From: Candidatus Latescibacterota bacterium
GTDB taxonomy: Bacteria > Latescibacterota > UBA2968 > UBA8231
Length of the DNA stretch: 64,000 nucleotides
Assembly (NCBI GenBank): GCA_965242865.1
Contig: CBDETK010000013.1
Coordinates: forward strand, 4,032,001 to 4,096,000
Direction: 5' to 3'
Shown: positions 14,091-37,251 of the stretch, in pieces
How positions within the stretch are numbered: the stretch's first letter is position 1
Layout of the letters: each line of letters begins with the position of its first letter
The notes under the pieces: generated by a model
Seen by the model: only the letters and a program-made list of their open reading frames with translations
The model's database searches: none
Told to the model about the DNA's origin: nothing
Program-made: the position numbers and the translations under genes

Positions 14091-16280
14091 CTAACCGCTT
14101 GCCGGGTCATCCACGCGCAGCACTTCCAACACGCCCTCGATGTGCTCGATTTGGTCTATGGCTTGGCGCAGTTGTTGGGTGTCGGCCACGTCGATCCAGA
14201 AGTCCTGTTCGGCGATGTGGCCGTCGGTGCGGGTGGTGGAGTCGCGGATGTTGGAGCCGGCGTCGCTGATCGCCCGCGCAATATCCGCGAGCAAGTACGT
14301 GCGGTCCCAACTGCGGGTGCGGAGCTGCACGGTAAAGGCCGGTTCGTCCTCCAGCTCCCACTCAACCGCGAGGAGGCGGTCTGGCTCGGCGGAAATCCGG
14401 CCGATGTTGGGGCAGGCCGTGCGGTGCACCGTGACGCCGCGCCCGCGCGTGACCAAGCCGACAATCTCGTCGCCCGGGATGGGGCCGCAGCACTTGCCAA
14501 AGCGGATCATCAGGTTTTGCAGGCCTTGGATGCGAATGTCGCGGCGGTCTTGGGGCCTAAGTGCGCGCCGCTTGGGCTGGACCGGAGCTATTTTGCCGAC
14601 GACCTTGCCGATGGATAGATCGCCGTTGCCCAAGGCCGCATAGAGGTGCTCGGCGTCGCTGAACCCGAACTCGGCCGCCACGGCGTTGAGGTCCGGGGGC
14701 GCGTCCGCCCGGTAGGGCTTTAACCGCCGGTCAAGCCCCTCCTTGCCGAGGCGCACGTTGTGGTCGTATTGCTCCTCCCGCAGCCAGCGGCGGATGGCTT
14801 GGCGGGCCTTGGCGGTCTTGACTTGGTCCAACCAAGCCAACTTGGGCTTTTGCTGCGGGGACGTGACGATCTCCAAGGTTTCGCCGCTGCTCAACGGCGC
14901 GCTCAGCGGCACGACTTGATCGTTTACTTTGGCCGTGGCGCAGTGCAGCCCGATGTCCGTGTGAATGGCAAAGGCAAAGTCAATCGGCGTGGCGCCCTTG
15001 GGCAACTGGTGGAGGTCGCCCTTGGGGGTAAAGACAAAAATTTCGTCCTGAGCCGCGAGCTCGGTCTTTAGGCTTTCCATGAACTCGACCGGGTCCGTGG
15101 CCTCCTGTTGCCAGTCGATAACTTGGTGTAGCCAGCTCAGGTGTTGGTCGAGGTCGCCGGGCGTCTTGTCGTTGGATTTGTAGCGCCAGTGGGCGGCAAT
15201 GCCGATTTCGGCCGTGTGATGCATCTGCGCGGTGCGAATTTGCACTTCGACGTATTGCCCGTTGGGGCCAATGACCGAAGTGTGCAGCGACTGGTACATG
15301 TTGCTCTTGGGAGTCGAGATATAGTCTTTGATGCGCCCGGGGATGGGGGTGTAGATGTGGTGGACCCAGCCGAGGATTTGATAGCATTCGCGCACGGTGC
15401 CGGTAATGATGCGCACGGCCAGCAGATCGTAAATTTCCTCAAAGGGCTTACCGCGCGCCTTCATCTTGTTGTAGATGCTGTAGAAGTTTTTGGCGCGGCT
15501 GGCAAACTCGGCTTTAATGCTGTTGGCGTGGAGGCATTCCTCGATCGGGACCTTGAATTCCCTGATGTAGTCCTCGCGCTCTTGGCGCGTCATGGCCACA
15601 TTGTCGCGCAGCTCTTGGTACATTGCGGGTTCGAGGAACTTGAGGCTTTGGTCTTCTAGCTGCCAGCGGATCCGCGCCAGCCCAAAGCGGTGGGCCAGCG
15701 GCGCGTACACTTCGAGCGTTTCGCTCGCGGTCCGCTGCCGGGACTTGGGGCTTAGGTGCTGGAGCGTCCGCATGTTGTGTAGGCGGTCGGCCAGCTTGAT
15801 GAGCATGACGCGGATGTCCTTGACCATAGAGAGCAGCATCTTGCGGTAGGTCTCGGCTTGGCGCGCCTCGCGGCTTTCGTAGGTTATCTGATCGATTTTG
15901 GTCACGCCGGCGATCAGCTCGGCGATCTTGTCGCCGAATAGCGCGGCGACCTCGGCATGCGTGGCCGGTGTATCTTCGATGACATCGTGCAAAAGCCCGG
16001 CTGCAACCGTGGTGTGATCCAAGCCGAGCTGGGCGAGCAGCCGCGCCACTTCAACGCAGTGCGATAGGAACGGCTCGCCGGACTTGCGGATCTGGCCTTC
16101 GTGGTGCTCTTTGGCGAAGTGGTAGGCGCGGTTGATCAGCGCGAAATCGGCTTGGTCGTTGCAGGAGGAGACCTCAATGAGCAGCATCGACAGCCGCAGC
16201 TCGTCGCCCCCCTGCTCGACGAGTTCGTCCAAGTAGGTATTCGGCAGGGCCGACAGCGGCGCGGGAGTGGTTTCGACCAT
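14091..16280 (-). CDS. spoT: Bifunctional (p)ppGpp synthetase/hydrolase, RelA/SpoT family
   Basis: Intact HD motif (LLHDVIEDT), KLADRLHNMRTL, YQSLHT, EVQIRT, TGS and ACT domains. Confidence 0.93.
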   Translation of the reverse strand: MVETTPAPLSALPNTYLDELVEQGGDELRLSMLLIEVSSCNDQADFALINRAYHFAKEHHEGQIRKSGEPFLSHCVEVARLLAQLGLDHTTVAAGLLHDVIEDTPATHAEVAALFGDKIAELIAGVTKIDQITYESREARQAETYRKMLLSMVKDIRVMLIKLADRLHNMRTLQHLSPKSRQRTASETLEVYAPLAHRFGLARIRWQLEDQSLKFLEPAMYQELRDNVAMTRQEREDYIREFKVPIEECLHANSIKAEFASRAKNFYSIYNKMKARGKPFEEIYDLLAVRIITGTVRECYQILGWVHHIYTPIPGRIKDYISTPKSNMYQSLHTSVIGPNGQYVEVQIRTAQMHHTAEIGIAAHWRYKSNDKTPGDLDQHLSWLHQVIDWQQEATDPVEFMESLKTELAAQDEIFVFTPKGDLHQLPKGATPIDFAFAIHTDIGLHCATAKVNDQVVPLSAPLSSGETLEIVTSPQQKPKLAWLDQVKTAKARQAIRRWLREEQYDHNVRLGKEGLDRRLKPYRADAPPDLNAVAAEFGFSDAEHLYAALGNGDLSIGKVVGKIAPVQPKRRALRPQDRRDIRIQGLQNLMIRFGKCCGPIPGDEIVGLVTRGRGVTVHRTACPNIGRISAEPDRLLAVEWELEDEPAFTVQLRTRSWDRTYLLADIARAISDAGSNIRDSTTRTDGHIAEQDFWIDVADTQQLRQAIDQIEHIEGVLEVLRVDDPASG

Positions 16281-17308: not shown

Positions 17309-19003
17309 CTACCGAATACCCAACGCGATGAACGCTGGAAAACTCAATCCCATGTCCGCGGTGGTGAGGTCTTCGACGCCTGTGCCATCCAAGTTGGCCC
17401 GCTTTATCTTCTTAGTGCCCCCCCGGTCTGTCCAGTACATCTTTCCGAGTACCAAATCCAGCGCGATGCCCGTTGGATCAATCAATCCCATGTCCTCGGT
17501 GGTGAGGTCTCGGCGGCCTGTGCCATCTAAGTTGGCCCGCTGAATCCTATCCGTGCCAAATTCCGCCCAGTACATCTTTTCGTTCACCACATCCAGCGCG
17601 ATGGCCCCTGGATTCGTCAATGTGAGGTCTTGGGTGAGGTCTTGGACGTCTGTGCCATCTAAGTCGGCACGCTTTATCTTAGCCGGGGGTCCCCAGTCTG
17701 TCCAGTACATCTTTCTGTTCTCCACATCCAGCGCGATGCCAAATGGATTAATCAATCCCATGTCTGCGTTGGTGAGGTCTTGGACGCCTGTGCCATCTAA
17801 GTTGGCACACTTTATACTATCCGTGCCAGCGTCCACCCAGTACATCTTTCCGTTCTCCACGTCCAACGCGATGCCGTATGGCGTATTCAATCCCATGTCT
17901 GCGTTGGTGAGGTCTTCGGCGTCTGTGCCATCCAAGTTGGCCCGCTTAATTTTAGCCGATCCACTGACAGCGTGTGTCCAGTACATCTTTCTGCCCGCCA
18001 CATCCAGCGCGATGCCCGCTGGAAAATTCAATCCCATGTCTGGATTGGTGAGGTCTTCGACGCCTGTGCCATCCAAGTTGGCCCGCTTAATCGTATTATT
18101 GCCCCAGTCCGTCCAGTATAGGGTAGTCACTCGTACTGCGGGTGGTCCCGTCGGTTCCTCTAGTTCTGGTAGTTCTGGATAGACTTGGACGGTTTCGACG
18201 CGGGGGTATTTTTCTAGTACCGCTACGACGCGGAGGCCGCTTGTTATCGCGGCGGCGAGTTGTTGGTTGGCCGCATGCTGGCTGAGGGCGTTTTCCATCA
18301 CGCCCAGCCATTGCAGGTTGGTCAGGCTCGCCAAGGGACTGATATCCGCAATCGCGTTGTCTCCTAGCTGGAGAAATTGCAGGTTGGTTAGGCGAGCTAA
18401 CGGCTGCACATCGGTAATCGCGTTGCCCCACATATCCAGCTTGCGCAAGCGGATCAGGCTGGCCAGCGGACTCGCATCCGCCACCTTGTTCCCCCACAGC
18501 GACAGCGTGTGCAGATTGGTCAGACTGGCCAGCGGACTGACGTCGGTAATCTCGTTGCCCCGCAGATACAGCGTTGTCAGTGCTGTTGCGTATTCGAGGC
18601 CGGCCACGCTCTCAATGTCTTTATAGCTCGCGTCGAGTTCGGTCAGGGATGCCAAGTCCGCCGGGGTCAGTGCCCCTTGCGGGCGATCCAACGCCTCCCG
18701 CACCGCCTGCTCCAGATTGGCGTCGGCAAACTCCACGGTGGCCGATTGGGTGCTGTCGGCGTCAGCGTCAGCGTCGGTCTGGGTGCTATCGGCGTCGGTC
18801 TGGGTGGTGTCGGGGCTTTCGGGGGCGGGCAGCCCGTCGGTAGCGGTGTAGGTGTCGTCGCCCAAGAATTCGCATAGCGAACAGGTGGCTTTGCCGGCTG
18901 GCCGAGAGGCGACCGGCGCGGAGTCCGAGCAGCCCGTCCAAGCACTGACGACGCCCAAAAGGACGAACCCAAGCAGGGTTTTGAGAGATTTCAACGAAAG
19001 CAT
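17309..19003 (-). CDS. Lipoprotein with internalin-like LRRs and an LDL-receptor YWTD beta-propeller
   Basis: Lipobox-like WTGC; FADANLEQAVREAL cap plus LxxLxLxxNxIxDxxPL repeats; six (M/L)YW(T)D-type repeats; AAGGAG RBS. Confidence 0.88.
   Translation of the reverse strand: MLSLKSLKTLLGFVLLGVVSAWTGCSDSAPVASRPAGKATCSLCEFLGDDTYTATDGLPAPESPDTTQTDADSTQTDADADADSTQSATVEFADANLEQAVREALDRPQGALTPADLASLTELDASYKDIESVAGLEYATALTTLYLRGNEITDVSPLASLTNLHTLSLWGNKVADASPLASLIRLRKLDMWGNAITDVQPLARLTNLQFLQLGDNAIADISPLASLTNLQWLGVMENALSQHAANQQLAAAITSGLRVVAVLEKYPRVETVQVYPELPELEEPTGPPAVRVTTLYWTDWGNNTIKRANLDGTGVEDLTNPDMGLNFPAGIALDVAGRKMYWTHAVSGSAKIKRANLDGTDAEDLTNADMGLNTPYGIALDVENGKMYWVDAGTDSIKCANLDGTGVQDLTNADMGLINPFGIALDVENRKMYWTDWGPPAKIKRADLDGTDVQDLTQDLTLTNPGAIALDVVNEKMYWAEFGTDRIQRANLDGTGRRDLTTEDMGLIDPTGIALDLVLGKMYWTDRGGTKKIKRANLDGTGVEDLTTADMGLSFPAFIALGIR
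17340..18120. repeat. Intragenic ~135-bp tandem repeats (YWTD blades)
   Basis: Recurrent blocks GGTGAGGTCT..CCTGTGCCATC.AAGTTGGC and CCAGTACATCTTT..CATCCAGCGCGATGCC. Confidence 0.85.
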
Positions 19004-19667: not shown

Positions 19668-21638
19668 ATGCGTTCCTTCCATACGGCCAGCCCGATTAAG
19701 CCGGAACGAGCCGAGCCGGTCTTCAGCGTCAAAGCACTGGTGGGCGGCACCCTAGGGTCGCTGTGCATCGCCGTGGGTGCCCCATACGGCAACATGGTCA
19801 TCCGCGGCTCGTACATGTCCATTGATTTCAGCGCGGCGGGTGCTCTGTTCCTCTTCTTCCTGCTGACAGGCTTGGTCAACGCCTTGCTGACTCGCTTGGC
19901 CGCTCCCGTGGCCTTGGGCCGCTGCGAGCTCATCGTCGTGTACATCATGATGCTCGCGGCCTCGGCCATCCCCACGATGGGCCTCAGCGAGTACTGGCTG
20001 ACGATCATCACCGGCGCCCAGTACTACGCCACCCCGGAAAACGAGTGGGCCTTGCACATCCTGCCGCACCTGCCCGACTGGATCGCGCCGCAGAATCCCG
20101 AGGCGATCCAGTGGTTTTACGAAGGAGCACCGCGCACCGCTGGCATCCCTTGGGCGGTGTGGATCGGCCCGCTGTGCCATTGGGCCGTGCTGATCGCGGC
20201 ACTGTACTTGGTCATGATCTCGTCGATGGTCATTCTGCGCCGCCAGTGGGTGGAGCGAGAGCGGCTGGTCTATCCGCTGGTGCAAGTGCCCTTGGCCATG
20301 GTGGAGGGCAAAAGCCGCGGACAGGCCCTAGGGCCTTTCTTCAAAAACCCGATTCTCTGGATCGGATTTGCCCTGCCCGCCCTCGTCAGCAGCCTCAACG
20401 CCCTCCACGCGTACTTCAACTTCATCCCCGCCATCCCGCTCGTCGCCTCAGTGCCAGTCCTGCGCAACACCGTCAGCCTGATCTTCCGCCTGAGCTTTCC
20501 CATGGTCGGGTTCGCCTATCTAATCAACCTCGACATCGCCTTCAGCCTGTGGTTTTTCAACACCATCGCCAAGCTGATCCGAGGAGGGCTGGGGGTTTTA
20601 GGGGTCGGCAGCACCGAAAAGCTGGGCATTTACGGCGCACCGAGCGAGCCTATTCTCGCCCACCAAGGGCAGGGGGCGATGATCGTCTTGGTGCTCTTCG
20701 GCCTGTGGATTGGCCGCGAACACCTGCGCGACGTGCTCCGCAAGGCCCTCAAGGGCGACGACCGCATCGACGATAGCGGCGAGATGCTGTCCTATCGGGC
20801 CGCAGTTTTCACGTGGCTCGCCGGGGTGGCGGTGATGACGGTCTGGCTGTGGCAGTCCGGCTTGCCCCTGTGGGCGTCCTTTTTGACCCTGCTGTTGGCC
20901 CTTCTTATCTTCGTCGGCTTGACCCGAGTAGTCGTAGAAGGGGGCGTGGCCGCGGCGGTCGGGCCGATGATTTCTTCGTCGGCCTTAGTCTCGGCCGTTG
21001 GCTCTTCAGCGCTCGGGCCGGCCGGTATGGTGGGCCTTGCGTACACCTATGTATGGGCGGCGGACATCCGCACGTTTGTCATGGCTTCCTGCGCTCACGG
21101 ACTCAAGTTGGGCGAGGAGCTGGGGCCGCGGCTGCGGCCGCTTTTTTGGTACATGCTGCTGGCGATTTTTGTCAGCATCGTCGGCTCGGTCGCGGCGATT
21201 TTGTACCTCGCCTACGAATACGGCGGCATCAACCTCAACGGGTGGTTTTTTGGTGGTGGAACCCGCGCCCCTTTTGATTATATTACCACCAAGTTAAGTG
21301 CGCCCACCGAGCCGAATATAGACGGCTGGATTCACACGGTTGTCGGCGGGGGCATCATGGCCCTGCTCATGTGGGCGCGCCAGCAGCTCTTGTGGTGGCC
21401 CCTGCATCCCATCGGATACCCCATTGGTGCTGTATGGCTGATGGACCAATTGTGGTTTAGCATTGCCCTTGCTTGGCTCTTAAAGTTGGTGGCAATGAAA
21501 TACGGCGGCCCCGGCCTCTTTCGCCGGGCGCGGCCCTTCTTTTTGGGCCTAATCGTCGGTCAGTTTTTTATCGCCGGGCTTTGGTTGATTATCGACTTTT
21601 TTACCGGCATGACCGACAATGTGGTCTTCTGGATTTGA
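19668..21638 (+). CDS. DUF6785/DUF6784-type polytopic membrane protein (OPT-like)
   Basis: Multiple TM helices; LRRQWVERERLVYPL, WWPLHPIGY, KYGG....RARPFFLGLIVG motifs that I recognise from this family. Confidence 0.75.
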   Translation: MRSFHTASPIKPERAEPVFSVKALVGGTLGSLCIAVGAPYGNMVIRGSYMSIDFSAAGALFLFFLLTGLVNALLTRLAAPVALGRCELIVVYIMMLAASAIPTMGLSEYWLTIITGAQYYATPENEWALHILPHLPDWIAPQNPEAIQWFYEGAPRTAGIPWAVWIGPLCHWAVLIAALYLVMISSMVILRRQWVERERLVYPLVQVPLAMVEGKSRGQALGPFFKNPILWIGFALPALVSSLNALHAYFNFIPAIPLVASVPVLRNTVSLIFRLSFPMVGFAYLINLDIAFSLWFFNTIAKLIRGGLGVLGVGSTEKLGIYGAPSEPILAHQGQGAMIVLVLFGLWIGREHLRDVLRKALKGDDRIDDSGEMLSYRAAVFTWLAGVAVMTVWLWQSGLPLWASFLTLLLALLIFVGLTRVVVEGGVAAAVGPMISSSALVSAVGSSALGPAGMVGLAYTYVWAADIRTFVMASCAHGLKLGEELGPRLRPLFWYMLLAIFVSIVGSVAAILYLAYEYGGINLNGWFFGGGTRAPFDYITTKLSAPTEPNIDGWIHTVVGGGIMALLMWARQQLLWWPLHPIGYPIGAVWLMDQLWFSIALAWLLKLVAMKYGGPGLFRRARPFFLGLIVGQFFIAGLWLIIDFFTGMTDNVVFWI

Positions 21639-21654
21639 GAAAGGCACTACAATT

Positions 21655-24600
21655 ATGCCTAAGTTCGCGGTGAGGTGGATGGCCCTCGGCCTAATGTTGG
21701 CCAGCGCGGCCCCGGCTTGGACCGAGGTCGATTTTACCGAATTGGCGCGCACGACCCCAGTTGAGCGCGTGCAGCAGACGATGGACACTTTTGCTGGCTT
21801 GGGGTCTAGAGTGGCTGGCTATCGAGGGGCCGACCAAGCGGCCCAAATCGTGCAGGAACGCTTCCGCGCCATCGGCCTCGACGACGTCGCAGTCCACGAA
21901 TACGATGTCTCGATTCCCGTGGATAAGGGTGGGTTTTTGCAAGTCGTCGGCAGCGACCAACGAGTGCCCATCCACGGCCTCTGGCCCAACCTCGTCAAGA
22001 CCTCAACGCTGCCCGAAGGCGGGATGACCCAGCGCCTAATCGACGCCGGCGCCGGCGAGTACGCCGACATGGATGGCCAGCAAGTCGAAGGGGCCGTGGC
22101 CCTGATGGACTTCAATTCGGACGACGCTTGGCTCAATGCCGCGTACCTCGGGGCGCAGGCCATCGTCTTCATCGAGCCGGATTCCACCGTGTACTTGGAG
22201 GGCGAAAAGAAGTTTCTCACCATGCCGCTCGACCTGCCGCGGTTTTGGGTCAATCGCCAAGCCGGTCAGCTCTTGCGCCGCCAGTTGGCCACCGAGGGCG
22301 AGCAAACCCTGCACCTAGAGTACCGCATGGATTGGGAGCGGCGGCCCGCTTGGAACATCCTCGGCTCGATCCCCGGGTACGATCCTCTAATGAAAGAGGA
22401 CGTCATCGTGCTGGAGGCGTACTACGACGCCATGTCGGTCGTGCCGGCCCTCGCCCCGGGGGCCGAGCAGGCCTCCAGCATTACGGCGTTGTTGGAACTG
22501 GCGCGCTATTTCCGCGCCAACCCGCCGGCGCGCACCATCGTCTTTCTCGCCACTTCGGCCCACCACTTGGGCTTGCGCGGGGTCGATGATTTCATTCAGC
22601 GTTACCTACGCAAAGAGGACCCCTTTATCGAACACATGCTGGTCCGGCGGGTCGTCGATGCGGCCCTCGCGCAGGAGATGATCGCCCAAGACGGCATTCA
22701 CTACGCCATCGGCGAGGACAAATTCACCGGCAAGGAAGCCTTGGTGCGGGGCATTGCCGACGGGCGCACCAACTTGGCCGTGCGCGTTGCGGACGCCGCC
22801 CTCGCCGAAGGGCTGCTGGCCGAAGCCGAAGACCCGGCGCGCAGCTCGTGGGGCTTGTGGAAGAAGACCATAGAATGGGTCCGGAGGCTGCTGAGCCGCG
22901 AAGAAGGCTCCCTGCACCTCGCTGGCAAGCAATTCAAAGACCGCCATGAACTGGTCGAGCGGCTCGACGCGGACGACGACTTGCGCTTGGCCCTGTACAA
23001 GCGCTGGGCCGACCCCAAAATCGATTCGCTCGCGGTCAAGCTCTTTATCAGCCTCGACCTTTCGTCGCAGACCGACGAGCTCGGGGTGTGGAATAGCAAT
23101 ACCAGCTTTTACTACAAGCGTTACTTCGCGCCCTTCGGCAAAAACTTTATGGCCTATGCGCGCACGATCAGCCGCGAGCTGGGCTACCAGCAGCGCGATG
23201 TGCTGGTCAACGGCATCAGCCCCGAAGGCGGGATGAGCTGGCAGACCTTTGTCCCCGGCGAAATATCGGTCAACAGCGAATTGGTGTTGGCAACCGGCAC
23301 TCCGGCGTTGGCCTTTGTCACGGTCAACGACGCACGCTTCCTCGTCGATACGCCCCTAGACCGCGCCGAGCGCGTCAACCACGCCAATCTCGCCAAGCAG
23401 ATCCGGGTCTTGGCCGGCATGTTCGAGATGGCCTTTGAAGACCCCGAGCTGTTCCCAGACTTCAAGATGCGCCTGCGCGACAATCTGCGCTCGCTCCGCG
23501 GCCGGACCATGGTCTTTCCGCGCCGCAGCATCATCCCCGACCTGCCGCGGGCCGACGCCGTGGCCGTGGTGCGCAACGGCAAGAAAAAGTCGTATAAAGG
23601 CGTGCGCGGCGAGTACTACGAAGTCGTCGATGACAAGGGGGCCTTTTACGTCAATCGGGTGCGGGTCAACAACGTCCAGATCGAGGGCTACTACATGGAC
23701 CCGATCACCGGCCGCATCACCTACGCCCCGGACCGCGGTGTGCAAGGCGACGAGAGCTACCCCATGAAGGTCGCCATGGACTGGCGCGACAAGCAGTGGA
23801 TGGTCATTCTCTTCCCCTGCGTGCCTTACAACTTTTTCGACATCGTCGATCCGCGCTATCTCACCAAGCTGTCCAACGTGCAGGTCTTCGACGAGACTAA
23901 CAGCGCCCCGGTAGAATACGGTTACACCATTGGCGAAGGCCCCTCGGCCCAAAACGAGCCGGTCGGCGTGCTCTTTGCGCGGCCCGGCTCGCGCATCAAG
24001 ATGGGATTCGGCGCCGGCCTGCTCGGCTTCCGCTCGCTCCTGCTCAACGCCACCAGCGTAACCGACAAGGAAAAAGCCGAGGGCGAGGGCTTTGAGATTC
24101 GCCCCGGCACCTCCTTTGCCCGCACGACCTTCCAAGCTGCCCAAGACATGTGGAACCTCGACGAGTCGCGGATGCGCGAGTTGCGGAGCTTTGCCATTGA
24201 GAACCAGCGCCTCAACGACCTCCACTATCGGGCCGAAACCGAGTTGGACCAAGCGGCCGCGGCCGGCGCCGAGCAGCGCTGGGGCGATTTCGTGCGCCAC
24301 ACGCGCGCGGCCTTCGGCCTAGAATCGCGCGCCTATCCAGACGTCAAATCCACCCAAAACGACGTCATTCAGGGCATCATTTTCTTCATGGCCCTGGTCA
24401 TTCCCTGCGCCTTTTTCACCGAGCGGCTCCTGTTTACGGCCGCCACCATCCGCAATCAGATCATCGGGTTTGTCGGGGTTTTTGTCGCGATCTGGAGTGT
24501 GTTGTGGATGGTGCATCCGGCCTTTCAGTTGTCCAATCCCTTCGTCATTCTGCTCGCTTTTGTCATCATCGCGCTGGCCGTGCTCGTGATGTCGATCATC

Positions 24601-26481
24601 TCCGGCCGCTTCAACGAGCAGATGAAAAAGCTCCGCACCGAGGTGGCCGTGATCCACGACACGGACGTCAGCCGCTCTTCGGCCTCGCTAACGGCTTTCC
24701 AGCTCGGGATTTCCAACATGAAGCGGCGCAAGACGCGCACGGTCCTCACCTTTACCACGCTCTTGCTGCTGACCTTTACCGTCCTCTCCTTCACCTCCAT
24801 CCGCACGGGCCTGCGGTTCAATCAAATCAGCCGCGACAACGAGGGCCTCTACGAGGGCATCCTAATCCGCAGCAAGGCGTGGAACCCAATGGAGGATTCA
24901 GTCCTCGAATACGCGCGCAGCAATTTCGGCGATCGGGCCGCGGTCGCGCCGCGCAGTTGGTACAGCAACAAGGCCAAGGCGCACATCAAAATAAAAGCCG
25001 GGGAAAAAGCCCATAACGCGCTCGGCGTCTTGGGGTTGACCCCGGAGGAAACCGAGGTCACCGGGCTAGACCAAGCCCTCGTGGCCGGGCGGTGGTTCGC
25101 GCCGGGCGAGGACAAGGTCTGCATCCTGCCCATCGACATGGTCAAGGAGGCCCATCTCGACATTGATCTCGCCGAGGTCGGCCAAGCGCAGGTCCGCATC
25201 TTCGGCGACTTGTTCACGGTCGTTGGCGTCCTCGACTCCAAGCGGATGAAGGACCTCAAAGACCTCGACGACGAAATCCTGACCCCGGCCGACTTTGCCG
25301 TCACCGGCGGCCAAGCCGTGCAGGAAATCGCCGAGGAAGAAAAGCGCGAGAAGCAGGGCTTGGAGGACGCCAAGGTCGTCATCAAGCCCTTTGTCCATCT
25401 GGAGCCGGCCAACATCCTCATCGTGCCCTACCACACGCTGCGCAACGTCGGCAGCGGCAACCCCTTGCAGTCTGTGGCCGTGCGCTTTCCGGCCGGCAGC
25501 GATGTGCGCGGCGAGGTCGAGGAATTTCTCTCGCGCCTCGCGGTGACCCTGTTTGCTGGCATCAAGGAGCCCGGCGACGAATACATCAAGGTGGCGATTT
25601 ACTCATCGCTGGGGCTGACCTCCTTTTCCGGCATGAGCAACTTGTTCATTCCCATGCTGATTGCCTCGCTCATTGTGCTCAACACCATGATGGGCAGCGT
25701 GTACGAGCGCTTCCGCGAAATTGGCATCTACTCTTCGGTGGGCCTCGCCCCCGGCCATATCTCTTGGCTGTTTATCGCCGAGAGTTGCGTCTATTCGGTA
25801 TTGGGCGTCGTCGCCGGGTATCTCAGCGGCCAAGTGATCGCCAAGGTGCTCATCGAGTTCGACCTGCTGGGGGGCTTCACCCTCAACTACTCTTCCGTGG
25901 CCGCGGTGCTCTCCTGTATGCTGGTGATGGCCGTGGTCATGCTCTCGACGATTTACCCGGCGCGCAAGGCTTCGCAAATGGCCGTGCCGGACGTGACCCG
26001 CAAGTGGAAGCTGCCGCCGCCCGACGGCGACCAGTGGGATTTTGAGTTCCCCTTTACGGTGAGCGGCCACGAGGTTTTGGGCTTGAGCGTATTCCTCATC
26101 GGCTACTTTGATTCCTACAGCGAAGAGTCCATCGGCACCTTCTACACCGACGGCGCCCGACTACGCCGCGAAGAGACGCCCAACGGCGAAGGGTATCTCA
26201 TCGACATGAACATCTGGCTGGCTCCCTTCGACTTGGGCGTCAGCCAACACGTCACCGTGCGGGCCCTGCCCGAGGACGAGCACAACATCTACTCCGTCGG
26301 TCTGCAAATCAAGCGACTCAGCGGCGAGGACGCGTCGTGGCGTCGGGTCAACCAGCGCTTTATGAACGTCATCCGCAAACAGTTCCTTATATGGCGCACG
26401 GTGGATACCGAGGCCAAGGAAGGCTACCGCCAACAGGGCGCGGAAATTCTGCAAGGGCTGCGCAGCGAAGTGTCGGCGTAG
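21655..26481 (+). CDS. Giant membrane protein: M28-peptidase-like ectodomain fused to a MacB/FtsX-type permease
   Basis: Signal peptide; SRVAGY.GA, NILG, AYYD..PGAE..LLELAR..RTIVFL (M28 fold); ISNMKRRKTRTVLT TM1 and SVYERFREIGI FtsX signature. Confidence 0.8.
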   Translation: MPKFAVRWMALGLMLASAAPAWTEVDFTELARTTPVERVQQTMDTFAGLGSRVAGYRGADQAAQIVQERFRAIGLDDVAVHEYDVSIPVDKGGFLQVVGSDQRVPIHGLWPNLVKTSTLPEGGMTQRLIDAGAGEYADMDGQQVEGAVALMDFNSDDAWLNAAYLGAQAIVFIEPDSTVYLEGEKKFLTMPLDLPRFWVNRQAGQLLRRQLATEGEQTLHLEYRMDWERRPAWNILGSIPGYDPLMKEDVIVLEAYYDAMSVVPALAPGAEQASSITALLELARYFRANPPARTIVFLATSAHHLGLRGVDDFIQRYLRKEDPFIEHMLVRRVVDAALAQEMIAQDGIHYAIGEDKFTGKEALVRGIADGRTNLAVRVADAALAEGLLAEAEDPARSSWGLWKKTIEWVRRLLSREEGSLHLAGKQFKDRHELVERLDADDDLRLALYKRWADPKIDSLAVKLFISLDLSSQTDELGVWNSNTSFYYKRYFAPFGKNFMAYARTISRELGYQQRDVLVNGISPEGGMSWQTFVPGEISVNSELVLATGTPALAFVTVNDARFLVDTPLDRAERVNHANLAKQIRVLAGMFEMAFEDPELFPDFKMRLRDNLRSLRGRTMVFPRRSIIPDLPRADAVAVVRNGKKKSYKGVRGEYYEVVDDKGAFYVNRVRVNNVQIEGYYMDPITGRITYAPDRGVQGDESYPMKVAMDWRDKQWMVILFPCVPYNFFDIVDPRYLTKLSNVQVFDETNSAPVEYGYTIGEGPSAQNEPVGVLFARPGSRIKMGFGAGLLGFRSLLLNATSVTDKEKAEGEGFEIRPGTSFARTTFQAAQDMWNLDESRMRELRSFAIENQRLNDLHYRAETELDQAAAAGAEQRWGDFVRHTRAAFGLESRAYPDVKSTQNDVIQGIIFFMALVIPCAFFTERLLFTAATIRNQIIGFVGVFVAIWSVLWMVHPAFQLSNPFVILLAFVIIALAVLVMSIISGRFNEQMKKLRTEVAVIHDTDVSRSSASLTAFQLGISNMKRRKTRTVLTFTTLLLLTFTVLSFTSIRTGLRFNQISRDNEGLYEGILIRSKAWNPMEDSVLEYARSNFGDRAAVAPRSWYSNKAKAHIKIKAGEKAHNALGVLGLTPEETEVTGLDQALVAGRWFAPGEDKVCILPIDMVKEAHLDIDLAEVGQAQVRIFGDLFTVVGVLDSKRMKDLKDLDDEILTPADFAVTGGQAVQEIAEEEKREKQGLEDAKVVIKPFVHLEPANILIVPYHTLRNVGSGNPLQSVAVRFPAGSDVRGEVEEFLSRLAVTLFAGIKEPGDEYIKVAIYSSLGLTSFSGMSNLFIPMLIASLIVLNTMMGSVYERFREIGIYSSVGLAPGHISWLFIAESCVYSVLGVVAGYLSGQVIAKVLIEFDLLGGFTLNYSSVAAVLSCMLVMAVVMLSTIYPARKASQMAVPDVTRKWKLPPPDGDQWDFEFPFTVSGHEVLGLSVFLIGYFDSYSEESIGTFYTDGARLRREETPNGEGYLIDMNIWLAPFDLGVSQHVTVRALPEDEHNIYSVGLQIKRLSGEDASWRRVNQRFMNVIRKQFLIWRTVDTEAKEGYRQQGAEILQGLRSEVSA

Positions 26482-26737
26482 GTGCAGCCCAAGTAGATAG
26501 CCTAGCTGCCCGGCGGTAGCGGGTTTCTCTACAGCTCCATTTCCAGATCAACGGCTGCATGACAGCATCGGCCGACGCTCGTCGTGTGGTTCGTCCAGTT
26601 CCTTCTTTCTATGCTCAAATAGTGTGCTGAGGGGGATGCCGTCGGAGGCGCGTCCCGAACAATCGAGCGATACGCCGGGGTCTGGGGACATCCCCCGAAC
26701 TTGTGGGGCGCGTGGCAGACGCGGTGGAGGACACAAA

Positions 26738-27568
26738 ATGTGGACGTATCGAGTGATCATCATTGCGTTGTTCGCCCTATTGCGGATGGGGGATGCGTAT
26801 GCGGAAACGGAGCCAAAAGAAATCACGATTCACATCCGTGGAGAGTACAACAAGGCGGTGATTCCGGCTCTGTTGGCGGCGGCTGACGCGAAGACGACGA
26901 GGACCGGGATCGCCGAGTTGGATTCTCTTGCAGCCACTTATGGCCTGATGGGGATATATCACAAGTCTGGCTTTTATGGGTATCAGTTTCGGCTGACGTT
27001 TCCGCCGGGTGCGGATGGGGCCGCCATTGCCGGAGCTTATAGGAACGTATCCTATATACAGGCGGTCGTCGGAGAGGCCGAGAAACTCCCGGTTCTTTTA
27101 GATCATCGTACAGCGAATGGTCTCCGTTCTTTTACCATGGAAAACCCGAGATTCCGGTTGCTCGCAAAGGTGGGTGCTGGAACGGCTTCGGGAATCATTG
27201 TTACAGCCATGGCCGCTAGTGCTATAGCAAACGCGGATAACTTTATGGGAGGTCATATTTTAGCGGGATCAGTCTTCGGCTGTAGTGTCGGATTCCCGTT
27301 GGGTGTGAGCATGGTTGATCATTATGATTCTTTACTCATTACCCTACTCGGTGGTGTCATACCGCTATCGGCCGGCGCTTACTTAGTAGGACACGAGATC
27401 GAAAGTATTAGGGTACTAGGGGCAACGGCTATATTTGTCGGCCCTATTATTGGTTCGCTCTATGCTTCGGAGAAATGGCGCCAGCTTCCTCAAGCCCGCC
27501 GCGTCTCCTTCGCGTTATCCCCTACCCTCAACGGCGGCCTTTCTGCCGTAGCCCAACTGCGCTTTTGA
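26738..27568 (+). CDS. Mosaic array protein A: signal + S8-prodomain-like module + Gly-rich hydrophobic core + conserved C-terminal hairpin
   Basis: GGAGG RBS; ETEPKEITI module shared with 29205; ends RVSFALSPTLNGGLSAVAQLRF. Confidence 0.75.
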   Translation: MWTYRVIIIALFALLRMGDAYAETEPKEITIHIRGEYNKAVIPALLAAADAKTTRTGIAELDSLAATYGLMGIYHKSGFYGYQFRLTFPPGADGAAIAGAYRNVSYIQAVVGEAEKLPVLLDHRTANGLRSFTMENPRFRLLAKVGAGTASGIIVTAMAASAIANADNFMGGHILAGSVFGCSVGFPLGVSMVDHYDSLLITLLGGVIPLSAGAYLVGHEIESIRVLGATAIFVGPIIGSLYASEKWRQLPQARRVSFALSPTLNGGLSAVAQLRF

Positions 27569-27589
27569 CCTTGCAACAAGAGAAAGGCT
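27475..27589 (+). repeat. 115-bp direct repeat, copy 1 (3' end of gene plus intergenic/RBS)
   Basis: Matches 28164-28278 except one base by my alignment; diverged third copy at ~30690-30810. Confidence 0.92.
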
Positions 27590-27594
27590 CCCCG

Positions 27595-28257
27595 ATGCCC
27601 ATTGCCATTGTGCTCACTGTGCTCACATTGCTCATCGGCATGGTCTCGCCCCTTTTCGCCAACTCCCCAGCGCAGTCTCCCTACTGGACGGGTCGGCTCG
27701 AACAGGACGCGACGTGGCGCGACACGGTGTCTGTCGGCGGCGATGTGACGATTGCAGCCGCGGCGACGGTGGCTAGCGACAGTGTGCAGATGGATACTGG
27801 CCGCGCCATTGGTGGATCCAGAGAGAATCCAGATGGTCTTGGGCCGAGATTGGGGAGAACTGCCCGAAAGTTGATTTTCGGTACTCTTGGAGGCATTGCT
27901 TTAGGGATTGTGGTGGGTGCCAGTGCCAGTGGAGGCTACAGCGGTGACGCTATCGGTGGATATAACAGTGCATTGGCAGGCTTCTTTTTGGGATATGGAG
28001 CCGGAACGGTGCTTAGCGTGTACTTAAGCGATCGACAGGCTCGTTTTAGCGGGGTACTGGCTGGCGGTACGGTGGGGATATGGGTAGGTGCTAAGACGAT
28101 AAGTAAGACCGAAGTGCCCATGTTAATCTGTCCTGTTGCCTTTGCGACAATTGCGTCTGAACTATGGCGCCAGCTTCCTCAAGCCCGCCGCGTCTCCTTC
28201 GCGTTATCCCCTACCCTCAACGGCGGCCTTTCCGCCGTAGCCCAACTGCGCTTTTGA
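27595..28257 (+). CDS. Mosaic array protein B: signal + truncated beta-helix module + Gly-rich core + conserved C-terminal hairpin
   Basis: YWTGRLEQDATWRDTVSVGGDVTIAA shared with 30027 and 31470; C-terminus identical to protein A. Confidence 0.75.
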   Translation: MPIAIVLTVLTLLIGMVSPLFANSPAQSPYWTGRLEQDATWRDTVSVGGDVTIAAAATVASDSVQMDTGRAIGGSRENPDGLGPRLGRTARKLIFGTLGGIALGIVVGASASGGYSGDAIGGYNSALAGFFLGYGAGTVLSVYLSDRQARFSGVLAGGTVGIWVGAKTISKTEVPMLICPVAFATIASELWRQLPQARRVSFALSPTLNGGLSAVAQLRF

Positions 28258-28278
28258 CCTTGCAACAAGAGAAAGGCT
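28164..28278 (+). repeat. 115-bp direct repeat, copy 2
   Basis: See 27475-27589. Confidence 0.92.
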
Positions 28279-28299
28279 TGAAACAGAAAGGACTGTGAG

Positions 28300-28983
28300 A
28301 TGCGCTTTATTTTGCTGGTCTTATGGCTACTGCTCGCCCTTTGGGAGCCAGTGGCGGCTCGGACGATTCGGGTCTCAGAAAAGGAATCAGAACACGGGCA
28401 CTTGGCCTTGTTTTGGGCTCTGATAGAGGCGGCTCCGCACGATACGTTGCTCGTCGCTGCCGGGGATTATGAGGGGGGTCGCATCGATAAACCCCTGACG
28501 CTCATTGGGGCCGGAGCCGATAGCACTAGAGTGGTAAGTTGCGGCGGCGGGGGATTCGGGATAGGAGCCGAAGGGGTAACCATTGAAGGATTTTATATAC
28601 AGAGCCACTTTGATAAATGTCGTGGGGCGAGAGCTATTGTGTGTAATAATTGTTCTGCGACACTCAAGCACAACATTCTCGAAGGGTGTTACTCGGCGAT
28701 TACCACCCTTGATAATGCTCGACTAACCGTCAACTACAACCAACTAATAGGCAACTTCGCCTTTGAGATTTTCCTCTCTGACCCTCCGAGCACTATTGAC
28801 GCTCGCTTCAACTGGTGGGGGACGACGGTTGAACAGGAGATACAGGCCAAGATAGCCGCGACGATGGACCAGGTGGTGTTGGTGTATCGGCCTTGGCTGC
28901 GAGGTCCCGAGGAAATCTTCCGTGATTTCCCTACCTTTATATCCCTGCTCAGTTGGGGTCAATTGAAACAGAAAGGACGATGA
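28300..28983 (+). CDS. Secreted right-handed beta-helix (pectin-lyase-like) protein
   Basis: Signal peptide; DTLLVAAGDY..IDKPLTLIGAG..VTIEGFYI..IDARFNWWG; C-terminal SWGQLK tail. Confidence 0.75.
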   Translation: MRFILLVLWLLLALWEPVAARTIRVSEKESEHGHLALFWALIEAAPHDTLLVAAGDYEGGRIDKPLTLIGAGADSTRVVSCGGGGFGIGAEGVTIEGFYIQSHFDKCRGARAIVCNNCSATLKHNILEGCYSAITTLDNARLTVNYNQLIGNFAFEIFLSDPPSTIDARFNWWGTTVEQEIQAKIAATMDQVVLVYRPWLRGPEEIFRDFPTFISLLSWGQLKQKGR

Positions 28984-28984
28984 C

Positions 28985-29122
28985 ATGCGCTTGGTCCTCC
29001 TGCTCTTTCTGTTGGGAGTCGGCTTTGCGGCCAGCGACGCCACCGAGGCGGGCTACGTTACGGGTCTAATTGTCGTCTTTTATATGTTCTCTGGGGTCTT
29101 TCTGGGTGTTCCAGGAATGTAG
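28985..29122 (+). pseudogene. Cassette stub: signal peptide + YVTG, then unrelated sequence (45 aa)
   Basis: MRLVLLLFLLGVGFAASDATEAGYVTGLIVVF...; CTACGTTACGGGTC is identical to the start of the module in 31470. Confidence 0.5.
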
Positions 29123-29204
29123 CTTATCCTGAGCTCGGCACCAAGGTTTGTCGGCTGTCGCCATGCTGTGCTTTTAATCCCTCAATAACGGGAGGATACG
29201 CTTT

Positions 29205-29969
29205 ATGCCGCTTATGATCGTTGCTACCCTGTTCGCCATACTCATGGTAGAGGGGGCAGAAGCAGAGACGGAGCCAAAAGAAATCACGATCCGCATCCGT
29301 GGCGAGCACAAAGCGGTGATTTCGGGTCTGTTGGCGGCTGTTGACGAGGGGACGACGGTTACGGGGATCGCCGAGTTGGATTCTCTTGCAGCCACTTATG
29401 GTCTGATAGAGTATGGTACGGGTCGATCCTCTGTCTTTTATGGGTATCGGTTTCGGCTGACGTTTCCGCCGGGTGCGGATGGGGCCGCCATTGCCGGAGA
29501 TTATGGGAACGTACCCTATATACAATTGGTTCGTCAACGCGCCAATTTGGGTAAGCGAGTTACGGGTAAGTTACTCGTTGGCACTCTTACTGGTAGCGTT
29601 GTCCTTGTGGGGGTGGGTGTTCCTCTGAGAACATTGACTTCTGATAGCGTCGCTACCATCGCTTGGGTTGGCTATCCGATTGGAGTGGGGCTCGGGACCA
29701 GTTTATTGGATAGACACGATTATTATCGATCCTTGGTATTTTCAATAGGTGGCAGCTTCTTAGGGGCTGGGATTGGCCTTGCACTAATCCCCATAGATCC
29801 ATGGAGGAATCCCATCAGTGCCGTTGGGCTCATTATGATCATGCAGTCTATCACGGCCACGTTGGTGTCCGAGTTGTTTCGCAAGCCCCCAGAGTCTGAC
29901 CGCTTCTCGGTAGGTCTGGTGCCAGACATCGGAGGGAACTGGTCGGCCGTAGCTACCCTGCGGTTTTGA
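29205..29969 (+). CDS. Mosaic array protein E: signal + S8-prodomain-like module + Gly-rich core + C-terminal hairpin
   Basis: GGAGG RBS; N-module DNA 29265-29524 similar to 26804-27060; ends RFSVGLVPDIGGNWSAVATLRF. Confidence 0.75.
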   Translation: MPLMIVATLFAILMVEGAEAETEPKEITIRIRGEHKAVISGLLAAVDEGTTVTGIAELDSLAATYGLIEYGTGRSSVFYGYRFRLTFPPGADGAAIAGDYGNVPYIQLVRQRANLGKRVTGKLLVGTLTGSVVLVGVGVPLRTLTSDSVATIAWVGYPIGVGLGTSLLDRHDYYRSLVFSIGGSFLGAGIGLALIPIDPWRNPISAVGLIMIMQSITATLVSELFRKPPESDRFSVGLVPDIGGNWSAVATLRF

Positions 29970-30026
29970 ACCGAGCCGCAAGATAGGCTCTAAACACCTA
30001 ACTGTTGGAAAGTCAACGTCTCACGG

Positions 30027-30788
30027 ATGGAGAGTACAAAGATAAAATATAGCCGACACACATGGCACTCTATCCAATATCGGCGGTATCGAGTGCTGTG
30101 GTTTGTCTTGATCCTGCTGGGAATTGGCTCTGCGGCCGAGGCCAGTGCTCCGGTTCCCTCGCGGTCCTACTGGACGGGTCGGATCAAACAGGCCACCACG
30201 TGGCGCGACACGGTGTATGTCGGCGGCGACGCGACCAAGCGGGGTGGGCGCGTCATGGTGGACTCGACTGGTGATTCAGGAAGCGGCGCGATGTCGGATA
30301 GTCTTGCGGAGAGTAAGAGTAATATGAGTACTGGTAAGCGAGTTGCTCTCAAGTTAATCGCTGGTACTCTTGGGGGAGTGGTAGGATTCGCGATGGTCAT
30401 CTCCAGCTTACCTTGCTTTCCCGACGACTATCCAGACGGTTACGATCCCATCTTTTGTAAATCAGCAGAAGCAGCTCTTCGATACGGCTATCCGGTCGGA
30501 ATTGCTATTGGTGTCAGTTTGGTTGGTCCACGCGACCGCCCTATCACATCCTTCATCAGGCCCCTAGTCCTATCCCTAGGCGGCAGTGCAGTAGGATTAA
30601 TCGGAGGTATTTGGTTGACAAATGTTGATAGCGAGGTGTTCTGGCCATCCATCCCTGTCTTTCCTATCGTCGGTGCGACGCTGGCGTCTGAACTATGGTG
30701 CCAGCCTCCTCAAGACCGCCGCTTCTTTTTCTTTTTAGCTCCCACCCTCAACGGCGGCCTCTCCGCCGTTACCACGTTACGCTTTTGA
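30027..30788 (+). CDS. Mosaic array protein F: signal + internally deleted beta-helix module + Gly-rich core + C-terminal hairpin
   Basis: YWTGRIKQATTWRDTVYVGGD joined directly to KRGG; ends LAPTLNGGLSAVTTLRF; start uncertain. Confidence 0.7.
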   Translation: MESTKIKYSRHTWHSIQYRRYRVLWFVLILLGIGSAAEASAPVPSRSYWTGRIKQATTWRDTVYVGGDATKRGGRVMVDSTGDSGSGAMSDSLAESKSNMSTGKRVALKLIAGTLGGVVGFAMVISSLPCFPDDYPDGYDPIFCKSAEAALRYGYPVGIAIGVSLVGPRDRPITSFIRPLVLSLGGSAVGLIGGIWLTNVDSEVFWPSIPVFPIVGATLASELWCQPPQDRRFFFFLAPTLNGGLSAVTTLRF

Positions 30789-30814
30789 CCCTTCAATGAG
30801 AGAAAGACTCCCCT

Positions 30815-31450
30815 ATGCCCATTTTGATCGCGGTAATCGCGTCGTCTTTGGCTTTCGTTCTGATGATTTTTTCGCTGAGTTCCACAAGTAATTCATCGTT
30901 GTCGCGGTCGAAGCAGCCATGTCTTTGGCCGCGTTGTGTCGTACTCAGTCTTCTTATGACGGTAGCTGCTCTTTGGGCTGGCTGTGGAAATGAAAAAGTC
31001 ACCGCACTAAGAGACGGGGCGATTGTTGTAATGGGGGCGATCAGAGATAAGGAGACCTTGGAACCGCTGAACAAGACTCTTGTGGGAGTCGTGTACTCGG
31101 GAATACCAGATAGTGTACTCATCGACTCATCGGCATTTTTGATTGTAACGCCTGAGCAGAAAGAAACCGGACGTCATCCACAAACCGCCTTGTGGACAAT
31201 TGAACAACCTCTGGTCCTCAACTATGAAGTTATGGAGTTTTTCACGGAAACCAGCGAGAACGGACTTTTTGAAATATATGAGTTTCCAAGTACCTGCGGC
31301 TCACACTATGACTGCGCTATAGAGCGTATCAGCAGATTGGTTGCTTGGAGGTCCGGCTACAGGTTATGGAAATACGACGTCCGGCGTGATACGGTCTCGA
31401 ATAATACCCCTCTTAATGTCTCTATTTACATGGAAAAAATCGAGAACTAA
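30815..31450 (+). CDS. Lower-GC exported hypothetical protein, possible lipoprotein
   Basis: Start context (GAGAAAG.CTCCCC.ATGCCCATT) matches gene B; internal LWAGC lipobox-like motif. Confidence 0.55.
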   Translation: MPILIAVIASSLAFVLMIFSLSSTSNSSLSRSKQPCLWPRCVVLSLLMTVAALWAGCGNEKVTALRDGAIVVMGAIRDKETLEPLNKTLVGVVYSGIPDSVLIDSSAFLIVTPEQKETGRHPQTALWTIEQPLVLNYEVMEFFTETSENGLFEIYEFPSTCGSHYDCAIERISRLVAWRSGYRLWKYDVRRDTVSNNTPLNVSIYMEKIEN

Positions 31451-31469
31451 CGCGATGGAAGTACACACC

Positions 31470-32534
31470 ATGAAGAGATCATTCGTTTCCACGGCCTTGT
31501 TGCTCCTCGGCATGGCCTCGCCTCTTTTCGCCAGTTCCCCAGCGCAGCAACCCTACGTTACGGGTCGGCTCGAACAGGCCACCACGTGGCGCGACACGGT
31601 GTATGTCGGCGGCGACGTGACGATTGCAGCGGGAGCGACGCTGACGCTGGACCCCAACACGCAGGTTTTCTTTCTGCCCTACCGCGATGAGACCCGAGGC
31701 GGCTTGGACACCACCCGTGCGGAACTGATCGTCAAGGGGCGACTGCATGCCCACGCCGGCGGCATCGTCTTTCGTTCCGCGGATGCGGCTTCGTTGGGAG
31801 CCGATTGGTATGGCCTCGTCGTCGAGCGGGGCGGGCGAGCCGATGTATCCTACGCTGCGATTCGCGATGGGCTGCGTTGCGTGTATGCCAAGCGGGGTGG
31901 GTTCGTCAGGATGGACGCTGTCGCCTTTGCCAACTGCGGAAAGCCGACCGCGCCAGCGGGTAGGGACAGTACGCTGACCGCAGGGGGCGTTGAGTTGGTG
32001 AACTCGTTGTCCATAGAGGCCGAGCCGGTAGATGCGTACTCCCTAAACGATAGGGCGATTACGAGGATTCCGACAAAGATAGGCGTAGGTGCGCTGACGA
32101 CGTTAGCGACAACAGTCATACTAGCCGAAACAATATTTCAACCAAAAGATAACTTTACAGAAGAAAATGCTCTGTTTTCAAAGGAAGACGAAGCCTACCT
32201 TATATCCCTCTCTTTCGGACTACTTGTCGGATACCCTCTTGGCGTGTACTTGGCCGATCCGGTGGAGAGCTCCTGCTGGATGACATTCGTGGGGGGGTAT
32301 GGTCTGGCTCTGGGAGGGTGGGCGACCGGAAGCGATCTGATCGCTGGGGTGGTTGTTTCTGGGGCTCCAATAATGGCGTCGGAGCTATCCCGGCTACTGC
32401 CCAAGCCGTTTCGCAATCCCAACCCATTCAAATGGCTATTCGGAACGTTTGGTCAGCCTAGCCCCCGCGTATCTTTCGGGTTGGCGCCGCAGCCCCAAAG
32501 GGGCCTGTCGGCCAGAGCCACGCTCCGCTTCTAA
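31470..32534 (+). CDS. Mosaic array protein H: signal + full beta-helix module + Gly-rich core + C-terminal hairpin
   Basis: TTWRDTVYVGGDVTIAAGATLTL..ELIVKGRL..WYGL; ends RVSFGLAPQPQRGLSARATLRF. Confidence 0.75.
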   Translation: MKRSFVSTALLLLGMASPLFASSPAQQPYVTGRLEQATTWRDTVYVGGDVTIAAGATLTLDPNTQVFFLPYRDETRGGLDTTRAELIVKGRLHAHAGGIVFRSADAASLGADWYGLVVERGGRADVSYAAIRDGLRCVYAKRGGFVRMDAVAFANCGKPTAPAGRDSTLTAGGVELVNSLSIEAEPVDAYSLNDRAITRIPTKIGVGALTTLATTVILAETIFQPKDNFTEENALFSKEDEAYLISLSFGLLVGYPLGVYLADPVESSCWMTFVGGYGLALGGWATGSDLIAGVVVSGAPIMASELSRLLPKPFRNPNPFKWLFGTFGQPSPRVSFGLAPQPQRGLSARATLRF

Positions 32535-37237: not shown

Positions 37238-37251
37238 CGCGAGCGCGGCAG

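Follow-up and report, generated by a model that had tools for sequence, protein, structure and literature searches.

The window analysed here, a stretch of 64,000 nucleotides on contig CBDETK010000013.1 of a Candidatus Latescibacterota bacterium (assembly GCA_965242865.1), contains a giant open reading frame (ORF; 21619–26481, plus strand; delimited by the ORF list and a homologue alignment) whose 1620-residue product, P0001, carries a domain of the M28 aminopeptidase fold with an altered set of metal ligands. The region that had drawn attention in the original prediction (22390–22590, plus strand) lies in frame within this ORF, and the peptide quoted for it matches the translation letter for letter. 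We read this region as the former active site of a PA/M28 aminopeptidase-fold periplasmic head, which sits on a giant permease of the MacB/FtsX (type VII ATP-binding cassette, ABC) kind and now serves in substrate capture, a proposal that we hold tentatively and at somewhat less than even confidence. The fold of the head, the substitutions in its pocket, the conservation of these substitutions, the fusion to the permease and the gene neighbourhood are established.

At the classical ligand positions of M28, the His, Asp, Glu-Glu, Asp and His of the enzymes are represented in P0001 by Tyr, Glu, His-His, Asp and Asp. In the M28 core stretch (22390–22590, plus strand) these comprise Y268-Y269-D270 (22420–22428, with Y268 at 22420–22422), E283-Q284 (E283 at 22465–22467) and H315-H316 (22561–22563 and 22564–22566), as placed by alignments to the aminopeptidases BSAP and AAP and to the AAP mutant E151H as well as by profile alignments to 2EK8 and BSAP. 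Thus, in phmmer alignments, 'AHYDSV' of BSAP faces 'AYYDAM' of P0001, which puts Y268 on the first His ligand, and both 'YAAEEVGLRG' of AAP and 'YAAHEVGLRG' of the E151H mutant (2anp) face 'TSAHHLGLRG', so that H315 aligns exactly with the His of a mutant whose PDB title reads 'Functional Glutamate 151 to Histidine mutant'. E283 is placed on the ligand Asp of 'PGAnDD' or 'PGAnDN' by the profile alignments to 2EK8 and BSAP; a one-residue deletion leaves the single-sequence alignment ambiguous between E283 and Q284, and conservation is found only at 283. Standing in for the bridging Asp, E283 could still bridge metals. Beyond the region of the original prediction, and on weaker evidence, D480 (23056–23058) ends the core strand 473–480 of the structural model, probably at the position of the M28 Asp ligand, and 'VDTPLD' (residues 576–581) stands where M28 enzymes carry 'YHTPxD', with D577 (23347–23349) in place of the last His. 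The C-terminal half of the M28 domain, searched alone against PDB sequences, returned chance matches only and no M28 enzyme. As judged from the alignments, neither the classical co-catalytic two-zinc set of ligands nor the catalytic Glu is retained, which confirms the original prediction in its claim that the metal ligands of this domain are substituted.

These substitutions are a property of a whole family. A search with the ectodomain against a library clustered at 50% identity yielded 2687 proteins with E no higher than 0.001, of which 848 reached E up to 1e-30, and residues were counted in the best 150 of the 2687 plus P0001, i.e. in 151 representatives of 50% identity or less aligned to a hidden Markov model (HMM). 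Position 268 is Tyr in 111 of these, Phe in 11 and His in 10, position 270 is Asp in 147, and position 283 is Glu in 109 and Asp in 18, with position 284 variable. His occupies position 315 in 145 representatives, Glu in none. Further into the domain, Asp is found at position 480 in 121 (Glu in 7), at 571 in 141, at 577 in 123, where His is not among the commonest residues, and at 581 in 143, and position 573 is Arg in 144 (R573 of P0001, 23335–23337). Over seven positions the commonest pattern is Y-D-E-H-F-D-D (33 of 151), the pattern of P0001 itself, Y-D-E-H-H-D-D, occurs in nine, and the canonical M28 ligand set is found in no member among the 151. Position 316 is Phe in 77, His in 17, Tyr in 15, Gly in 14 and Cys in 11, and a conserved His-His metal site, which the original prediction had offered as one possibility, is therefore rejected, the second His not being conserved. 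The five paralogues encoded in the same genome show the same picture, with only the first His kept ('SAHH', 'GAHF', 'SGHF', 'PGHF' and 'AGHF'); two of the five retain His at position 268. 'His-His' is thus a peculiarity of a clade, and the signature of the family is a single His for the catalytic Glu, together with an acidic pocket and an invariant Arg.

The pocket ranks among the best conserved parts of the ectodomain. Out of 915 ectodomain positions, with a median conservation of 0.32, D270 ranks first, S273 third, H315 fifth, R573 twelfth, D581 fourteenth and D571 eighteenth, and K198, P203, P207 and R208 of the PA domain are within the top 20. A relic site would be expected to drift and the positions here have not; the pocket (D270, E/D283, H315, D480, D571, R573, D577 and D581) is thus remodelled yet strongly conserved, not decayed. 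Because it is remodelled but at the same time tightly conserved, it should still do something specific. In the phylum, the ectodomain was found in 138 of 151 genomes sampled, often in several copies, and in 13 of the 14 families sampled, with none in the 13 genomes of the remaining family.

That the head belongs to the M28 fold is beyond chance, since the Pfam score is above cut-off, phmmer matches BSAP and the model superposes on AAP. Peptidase_M28 (PF04389) is called at residues 246–364 with 35.7 bits against a cut-off of 21.3 (E = 9.3e-9), a match that spans only the first 104 of 193 profile positions, and in a single-sequence phmmer search of PDB sequences BSAP/YwaD (6hc6) is matched at E = 5e-11. 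An AlphaFold2 model of residues 36–950, built on 55 sequences, reached a mean predicted local distance difference test (pLDDT) score of 91.3 and a predicted template modelling (pTM) score of 0.89. With this model, Foldseek against the PDB ranks 2EK8, BSAP and PaAP first, followed by transferrin receptor 1 (TfR1) and GCPII. A second look with VIA gave AAP 1amp at Z 28.7 (root-mean-square deviation, rmsd, 2.5 A over 266 of 291 residues), AAP-E151H at 28.6, BSAP at 28.3 over 388 residues, 2EK8 at 27.8, a glutaminyl cyclase at 26.4 and TfR1 at 26.2, the lowest Z among the matches listed being 24.9. A wide VIA search of 48,161 representative chains left this order unchanged, with M20/M42 peptidases next and Z 17.5 the lowest among the matches listed; a GPI-transamidase chain (7w72_A, probably GPAA1 as judged from its length) appeared at Z 19.2. 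Across the VIA searches, TfR1 stood at Z 25–26 and the glutaminyl cyclases at 24–26. By its fold, the head of the ectodomain thus consists of two domains, PA and M28, and is of the bacterial aminopeptidase/TfR/GCPII type.

The original prediction had seen in this domain a special resemblance to the eukaryotic proteins nicalin and nicastrin, and the ranking of sequence matches speaks against it. With the family profile against PDB sequences, 2EK8 comes first (E = 5e-26), followed by BSAP (3e-21), AAP-E151H (1e-10), nicalin (2.3e-10, covering profile positions 240–519), AAP (2e-9), TfR1 (6e-7) and nicastrin (1.8e-4), and in the single-sequence search the match to nicalin covers 38 residues at E = 0.014. 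In three fold searches with the ectodomain model, the matches listed (the best 50 per search) include neither of the two proteins. A closer kinship to nicalin and nicastrin than to other M28 proteins was rejected on the ranking by sequence, by the standard that the original prediction itself had set, and the likeness is only an analogy: in each case an M28-fold ectodomain that appears to have lost the classical site stands on a multi-pass membrane assembly.

What this head stands on is apparent from the rest of the ORF. Besides the peptidase domain, Pfam finds MacB_PCD (PF12704; residues 1041–1227, 35.9 bits) and FtsX (PF02687; residues 1343–1454, 56.7 bits) in the same ORF, which makes the M28 domain the outer portion of a membrane protein of very large size, in which an ectodomain (residues 36–915) precedes seven transmembrane (TM) helices that include the FtsX module (Pfam, hydropathy). 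A model of residues 836–1620 (pLDDT 86.4) retrieved MacB 5gko (E = 3.3e-10), LolCDE, YtrEF, HrtBA and YbbAP in Foldseek searches. The giant protein is a MacB/FtsX-type permease, with the FtsX four-helix module and a periplasmic core domain between TM1 and TM2; the original prediction was thus right to place the M28 domain on a prokaryotic membrane protein.

From its N-terminus, the giant protein can be laid out as follows. Translation may begin at M1 (21619), which overlaps the upstream gene by 20 nucleotides, or at M13 (21655), which is the start in many homologues and would turn this overlap into a short spacer. Residues 13–35 (21655–21723) look like a signal peptide by their sequence, at a hydropathy below the threshold of the scan. 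The N-terminal part of the M28 fold (residues 36–120, borders approximate; 21724–21978), delimited by the model and alignments, leads into an inserted domain of the PA type (about residues 121–245; 21979–22353), which is indicated by BSAP and 2EK8 aligning over 388–392 of their 406–412 residues; Pfam does not call a PA domain in P0001, and the highly conserved residues of this domain are K198, P203, P207-R208-F-W and W239. The M28 core with the altered ligand positions (residues 246–335; 22354–22623) is defined by PF04389 and by sequence and profile alignments. A helical insertion of about 135 residues (residues 336–470; 22624–23028), visible in the homologue alignment and modelled at pLDDT 53–87, separates the 'HH' strand from the D480 strand in the core. 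This insertion is limited to the closest clade and missing in homologues below about 60% identity, and it could form a lid above the pocket. The C-terminal part of the M28 fold (residues 471–620; 23029–23478), with D480, D571, R573, D577 and D581, is placed by conservation, the model and the profile alignment. It is followed by a beta-rich periplasmic domain (residues 621–835; 23479–24123), assigned by DSSP of the model, the fold searches being dominated by the M28 part, and by a long helical stalk seen in the models (residues 836–915; 24124–24363). Three extra TM helices (about residues 916–938, 946–966 and 974–996; 24364–24606; hydropathy scan and models) precede a basic cytoplasmic linker, which together with FtsX TM1 (residues 1043–1061) and the MacB-like periplasmic core domain occupies 24607–25623 (PF12704; Foldseek matches to MacB and LolCDE). 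FtsX TM2–TM4 (25624–25983; PF02687, Foldseek and hydropathy) then lead to a conserved cytoplasmic C-terminal domain of 165 amino acids in the model (residues 1456–1620; 25984–26478), for which Pfam gave no match at E up to 10 and a motif scan no Walker A. All of these features are on the plus strand.

The giant gene keeps company with two families of polytopic membrane proteins. Directly upstream on the same strand lies a gene for a DUF6785 + DUF6784 protein (19668–21638, plus strand; Pfam E = 1.4e-126 and 1.8e-30), the end of which is overlapped by the 20 nucleotides mentioned above if the giant gene starts at M1, and downstream follows the gene for a third polytopic membrane protein of 804 amino acids (32869–35283, plus strand), recognized with an HMM made from the genome's own copies. 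We compared 71 related loci from public genomes, labelled mostly as Latescibacterota, with some Gemmatimonadota, two Omnitrophota and one each of Desantisbacteria and Planctomycetota, and scored their neighbours with HMMs built from the source genome's own copies. DUF6785 is found directly upstream of the giant gene in 46 of the 64 loci with enough upstream DNA, and in 48 of 62 testable loci a member of the third family follows it immediately downstream. By hhalign, this third family is distantly paralogous to DUF6785 (probability 93.5%, E = 2.3e-7). Searches of PDB sequences with profiles of the two families returned nothing useful, and Pfam at E up to 10 gave no OPT match for DUF6785. The source genome has 29 copies of DUF6785 as compared with only five giant M28-FtsX genes and five third-family genes, and most DUF6785 proteins must therefore have other partners.

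In the window the third gene stands 6.4 kb downstream of the giant gene, and the closest relative, locus L065, has a similar gap. This 6.4-kb block (26624–32534, plus strand) separates the giant gene from its usual downstream partner and is not found in most orthologous loci. It consists of seven ORFs without Pfam matches, five of which encode small exported paralogues (30–54% identity to each other). The N-termini of these five look like signals, their middles are hydrophobic and rich in Gly, and they have in common a C-terminus that ends in '...LRF' and resembles an outer-membrane beta-signal. Farther away, a gene at 17309–19003 (minus strand) encodes an exported protein of 564 amino acids with leucine-rich repeats and five LDL-receptor class B (YWTD) repeats (Pfam E = 9e-46 and 1e-37), i.e. 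a eukaryote-style beta-propeller in a bacterium, and a full-length RelA/SpoT protein with HD, RelA_SpoT, TGS and ACT domains (14091–16280, minus strand) and a RecD2-type helicase (36766–39420, plus strand) are ordinary neighbours.

In 10 of 59 related loci a gene for an ABC ATPase is found upstream, in the same orientation as the giant gene, and the one of locus L060 is of the LolD/FtsE/MacB type (LolD model, E = 9.5e-69, below the equivalog cut-off). Since the giant gene is the only FtsX-bearing frame in these ten ATPase-carrying loci, its product is the likely partner of the ATPase. In the Desantisbacteria record (locus L084, 7882–9409) an ATPase gene stands downstream of the module, preceded by a small second FtsX-bearing frame, and this ATPase may belong to a separate permease. 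The source genome itself has two genes for LolD-type ATPases with no complete FtsX permease beside them (C13:2149234–2149983 and C13:228796–229530), the second of which is preceded by an open frame of 242 amino acids with the C-terminal domain of FtsX only; we regard both as candidates, and only as candidates, for in-trans motors of the giant permeases.

Taken together, our best reading is that an acidic pocket furnished with a His and an Arg, with basic residues of the PA domain on the opposite side, would let the head bind a peptide-like compound or another ligand that carries an amine, so that the pocket would operate as a substrate-capture site and not as a two-zinc aminopeptidase. The FtsX module would move the head by ATP hydrolysis, as in MacB, LolCDE and FtsEX, and the LolD/MacB-type ATPase driving it would be supplied in trans in the source genome and by a nearby gene in sister lineages. 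Finally, the ligand would be handed to the two flanking, distantly OPT-like permeases.

Several observations weigh against parts of this proposal. The conserved His, the three or four carboxylates and the Arg fit catalysis as well as they fit binding, and the E151H mutant of AAP, with its His at the site of H315, carries the word 'functional' in the title of its PDB entry. For D480 and D577, the mapping is based on a motif, on strand and loop order in the model and on a low-scoring profile alignment to 'YHTPND' of 2EK8 (i-E-value about 1e3). With respect to the motor, no ABC ATPase (ABC_tran) is present in the 64-kb window nor beside any of the five paralogues in the genome. The counts of neighbouring genes are not independent, many of the 71 loci being near-identical orthologues. 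The link to OPT is weak: two third-family genes show sub-threshold Pfam OPT matches at their C-termini (E = 2.6e-4 and, for the 804-residue protein of the window, 0.004), OPT and 'peptide transporter' clusters come up in Atlas at 0.77–0.79, at the level of a lead only, and hhalign comparisons of the two flanking families with the one clear OPT protein of the genome were not significant (probabilities of 14% and 4%).

Of the alternatives, a site that is still catalytic survives best, as a possibility to be taken seriously but less probable than capture alone. Such a site could be a re-wired mono- or dinuclear metal site made up of Glu283, Asp480, Asp577 and His315, or a His-based hydrolase, which would trim peptides before uptake; a carboxylate-rich site of this kind would favour Mn, Fe or Co over Zn, and the FtsX module might perhaps switch the hydrolase on, by analogy with the way in which FtsEX controls cell-wall hydrolases. 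The old ligand positions are indeed among the most conserved of the ectodomain, two of the five (E283 and D480) keep the same or a similar carboxylate, the title of 2anp indicates that AAP tolerates a His at the position of the catalytic Glu, and the closest solved proteins are all active aminopeptidases. Against this, 122 of the 151 representatives have Tyr or Phe for the His that holds one zinc in the enzymes, 77 have Phe for the Glu ligand and 123 have Asp for the second His. Most members have lost three of the classical ligands, the canonical set is kept by no representative, and the invariant R573 near the site could stand in for the charge of a metal.

Rather unlikely, and clearly more so than a catalytic site, is a head that acts purely as a structural scaffold or dimerization platform in the manner of the transferrin receptor, with the conserved residues forming internal salt bridges. 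TfR1, a non-catalytic dimeric receptor, superposes closely on the head over about 400 residues (Z 26.2 in the second look and 25.1 in the wide search), MacB-type permeases act as dimers, and R573 could join several of the Asp and Glu residues in a buried salt-bridge cluster. The conservation is focused, however, on the old active-site positions and on K198 and R208 of the PA domain, which fits a ligand pocket better, and whereas dead sites usually drift, H315 has been kept in all but six of the 151 representatives. As for the idea that the head belongs to the nicalin/nicastrin lineage, as a prokaryotic member or as its ancestor, and gates substrates for a partner within the membrane, the long family-profile match to nicalin, the presence of the GPI-transamidase chain (another non-catalytic M28-like subunit of a membrane complex) among the structural matches and the aptness of the functional analogy are outweighed by profile matches to 2EK8 and BSAP that are better than that to nicalin by 11 to 16 orders of magnitude, with nicastrin lower still, by fold searches that list M20/M42 peptidases and, among the best 50 matches of each, neither of these two proteins, by the PA insertion of bacterial PA-M28 enzymes and by the seven TM helices of a MacB-type permease in place of a single anchor (NOMO/TMEM147 and presenilin/APH-1/PEN-2 were not searched for), and we consider this idea highly improbable.

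Substrate capture by a remodelled pocket on a MacB/FtsX permease thus remains our preferred reading. The more far-reaching idea, in which either a working ATP-gated capture site or an unorthodox single-metal or His hydrolase on a MacB-type motor feeds two OPT-like permeases, we regard as doubtful, on a par with the catalytic alternative. If it were true, this would be an uptake machine of a new kind, with secondary transporters served by an ABC 'mechanotransmitter', and the M28 ectodomains that gate substrates on eukaryotic membrane complexes would have a prokaryotic counterpart that arose by convergence. Knowing the ligand would assign a role to a membrane system that is widespread and multi-copy in the uncultured Latescibacterota and neighbouring phyla, and likewise to DUF6785/DUF6784, and would put to the test whether motors of the type VII ABC kind can also work for a different class of transporters. 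The system is not only widespread and present in multiple copies but also experimentally tractable, and literature searches, judged from the titles listed, found nothing on DUF6785 or on the M28-FtsX family.

How does this system compare with what is known? The non-catalytic M28 ectodomains of the transferrin receptor, nicastrin and nicalin are known as eukaryotic inventions on receptors or membrane complexes, and a large prokaryotic family, with its 848 representatives at E up to 1e-30, appears to have done a comparable thing on a MacB/FtsX motor. The M28 fold and the MacB/FtsX module are both known, and the variant described here places an M28 ectodomain with a non-canonical site on a permease of the type VII ABC kind. 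The nearest relatives of the head by sequence, 2EK8 of Aneurinibacillus and BSAP/YwaD of B. subtilis (6HC6/6HC7), share with it the PA + M28 fold over about 390 residues (Z 27.8–28.3) and the motif frame xHYD, PGAxD, GAEE and YHTPxD. They are soluble secreted enzymes with a full two-zinc site, whereas in P0001 four of six key positions are changed and the head is fused to a membrane module of 700 residues. AAP of Aeromonas/Vibrio proteolytica (1AMP/1RTQ) and its mutant form 2ANP provide the best structural match to the M28 core (Z 28.5–28.7, rmsd 2.4–2.5 A, 266 of 291 residues), and the mutant has its His at the site of the near-invariant H315; in contrast to P0001, AAP lacks a PA domain and has its five zinc ligands complete.

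An M28 fold put to another use, its metal site altered, is also seen in TfR1, the glutaminyl cyclases, nicalin, nicastrin and the GPI-transamidase subunit, and several of these serve as ectodomains in membrane complexes, but their membrane partner is a different one, and the pocket of P0001 is strongly conserved rather than drifted. On the side of the motor, the type VII ABC systems MacB, LolCDE, FtsEX, YtrEF, HrtBA and YbbAP have the same FtsX four-helix module and the same periplasmic core domain between TM1 and TM2, and some sister lineages have an ATPase of the LolD/MacB type in the locus as well. To this common plan P0001 adds an N-terminal ectodomain of 900 residues, three TM helices and a cytoplasmic tail of 165 residues, and, in contrast to these systems, the giant gene has no ATPase gene with it in the 64-kb window and is constantly paired with two polytopic membrane proteins.

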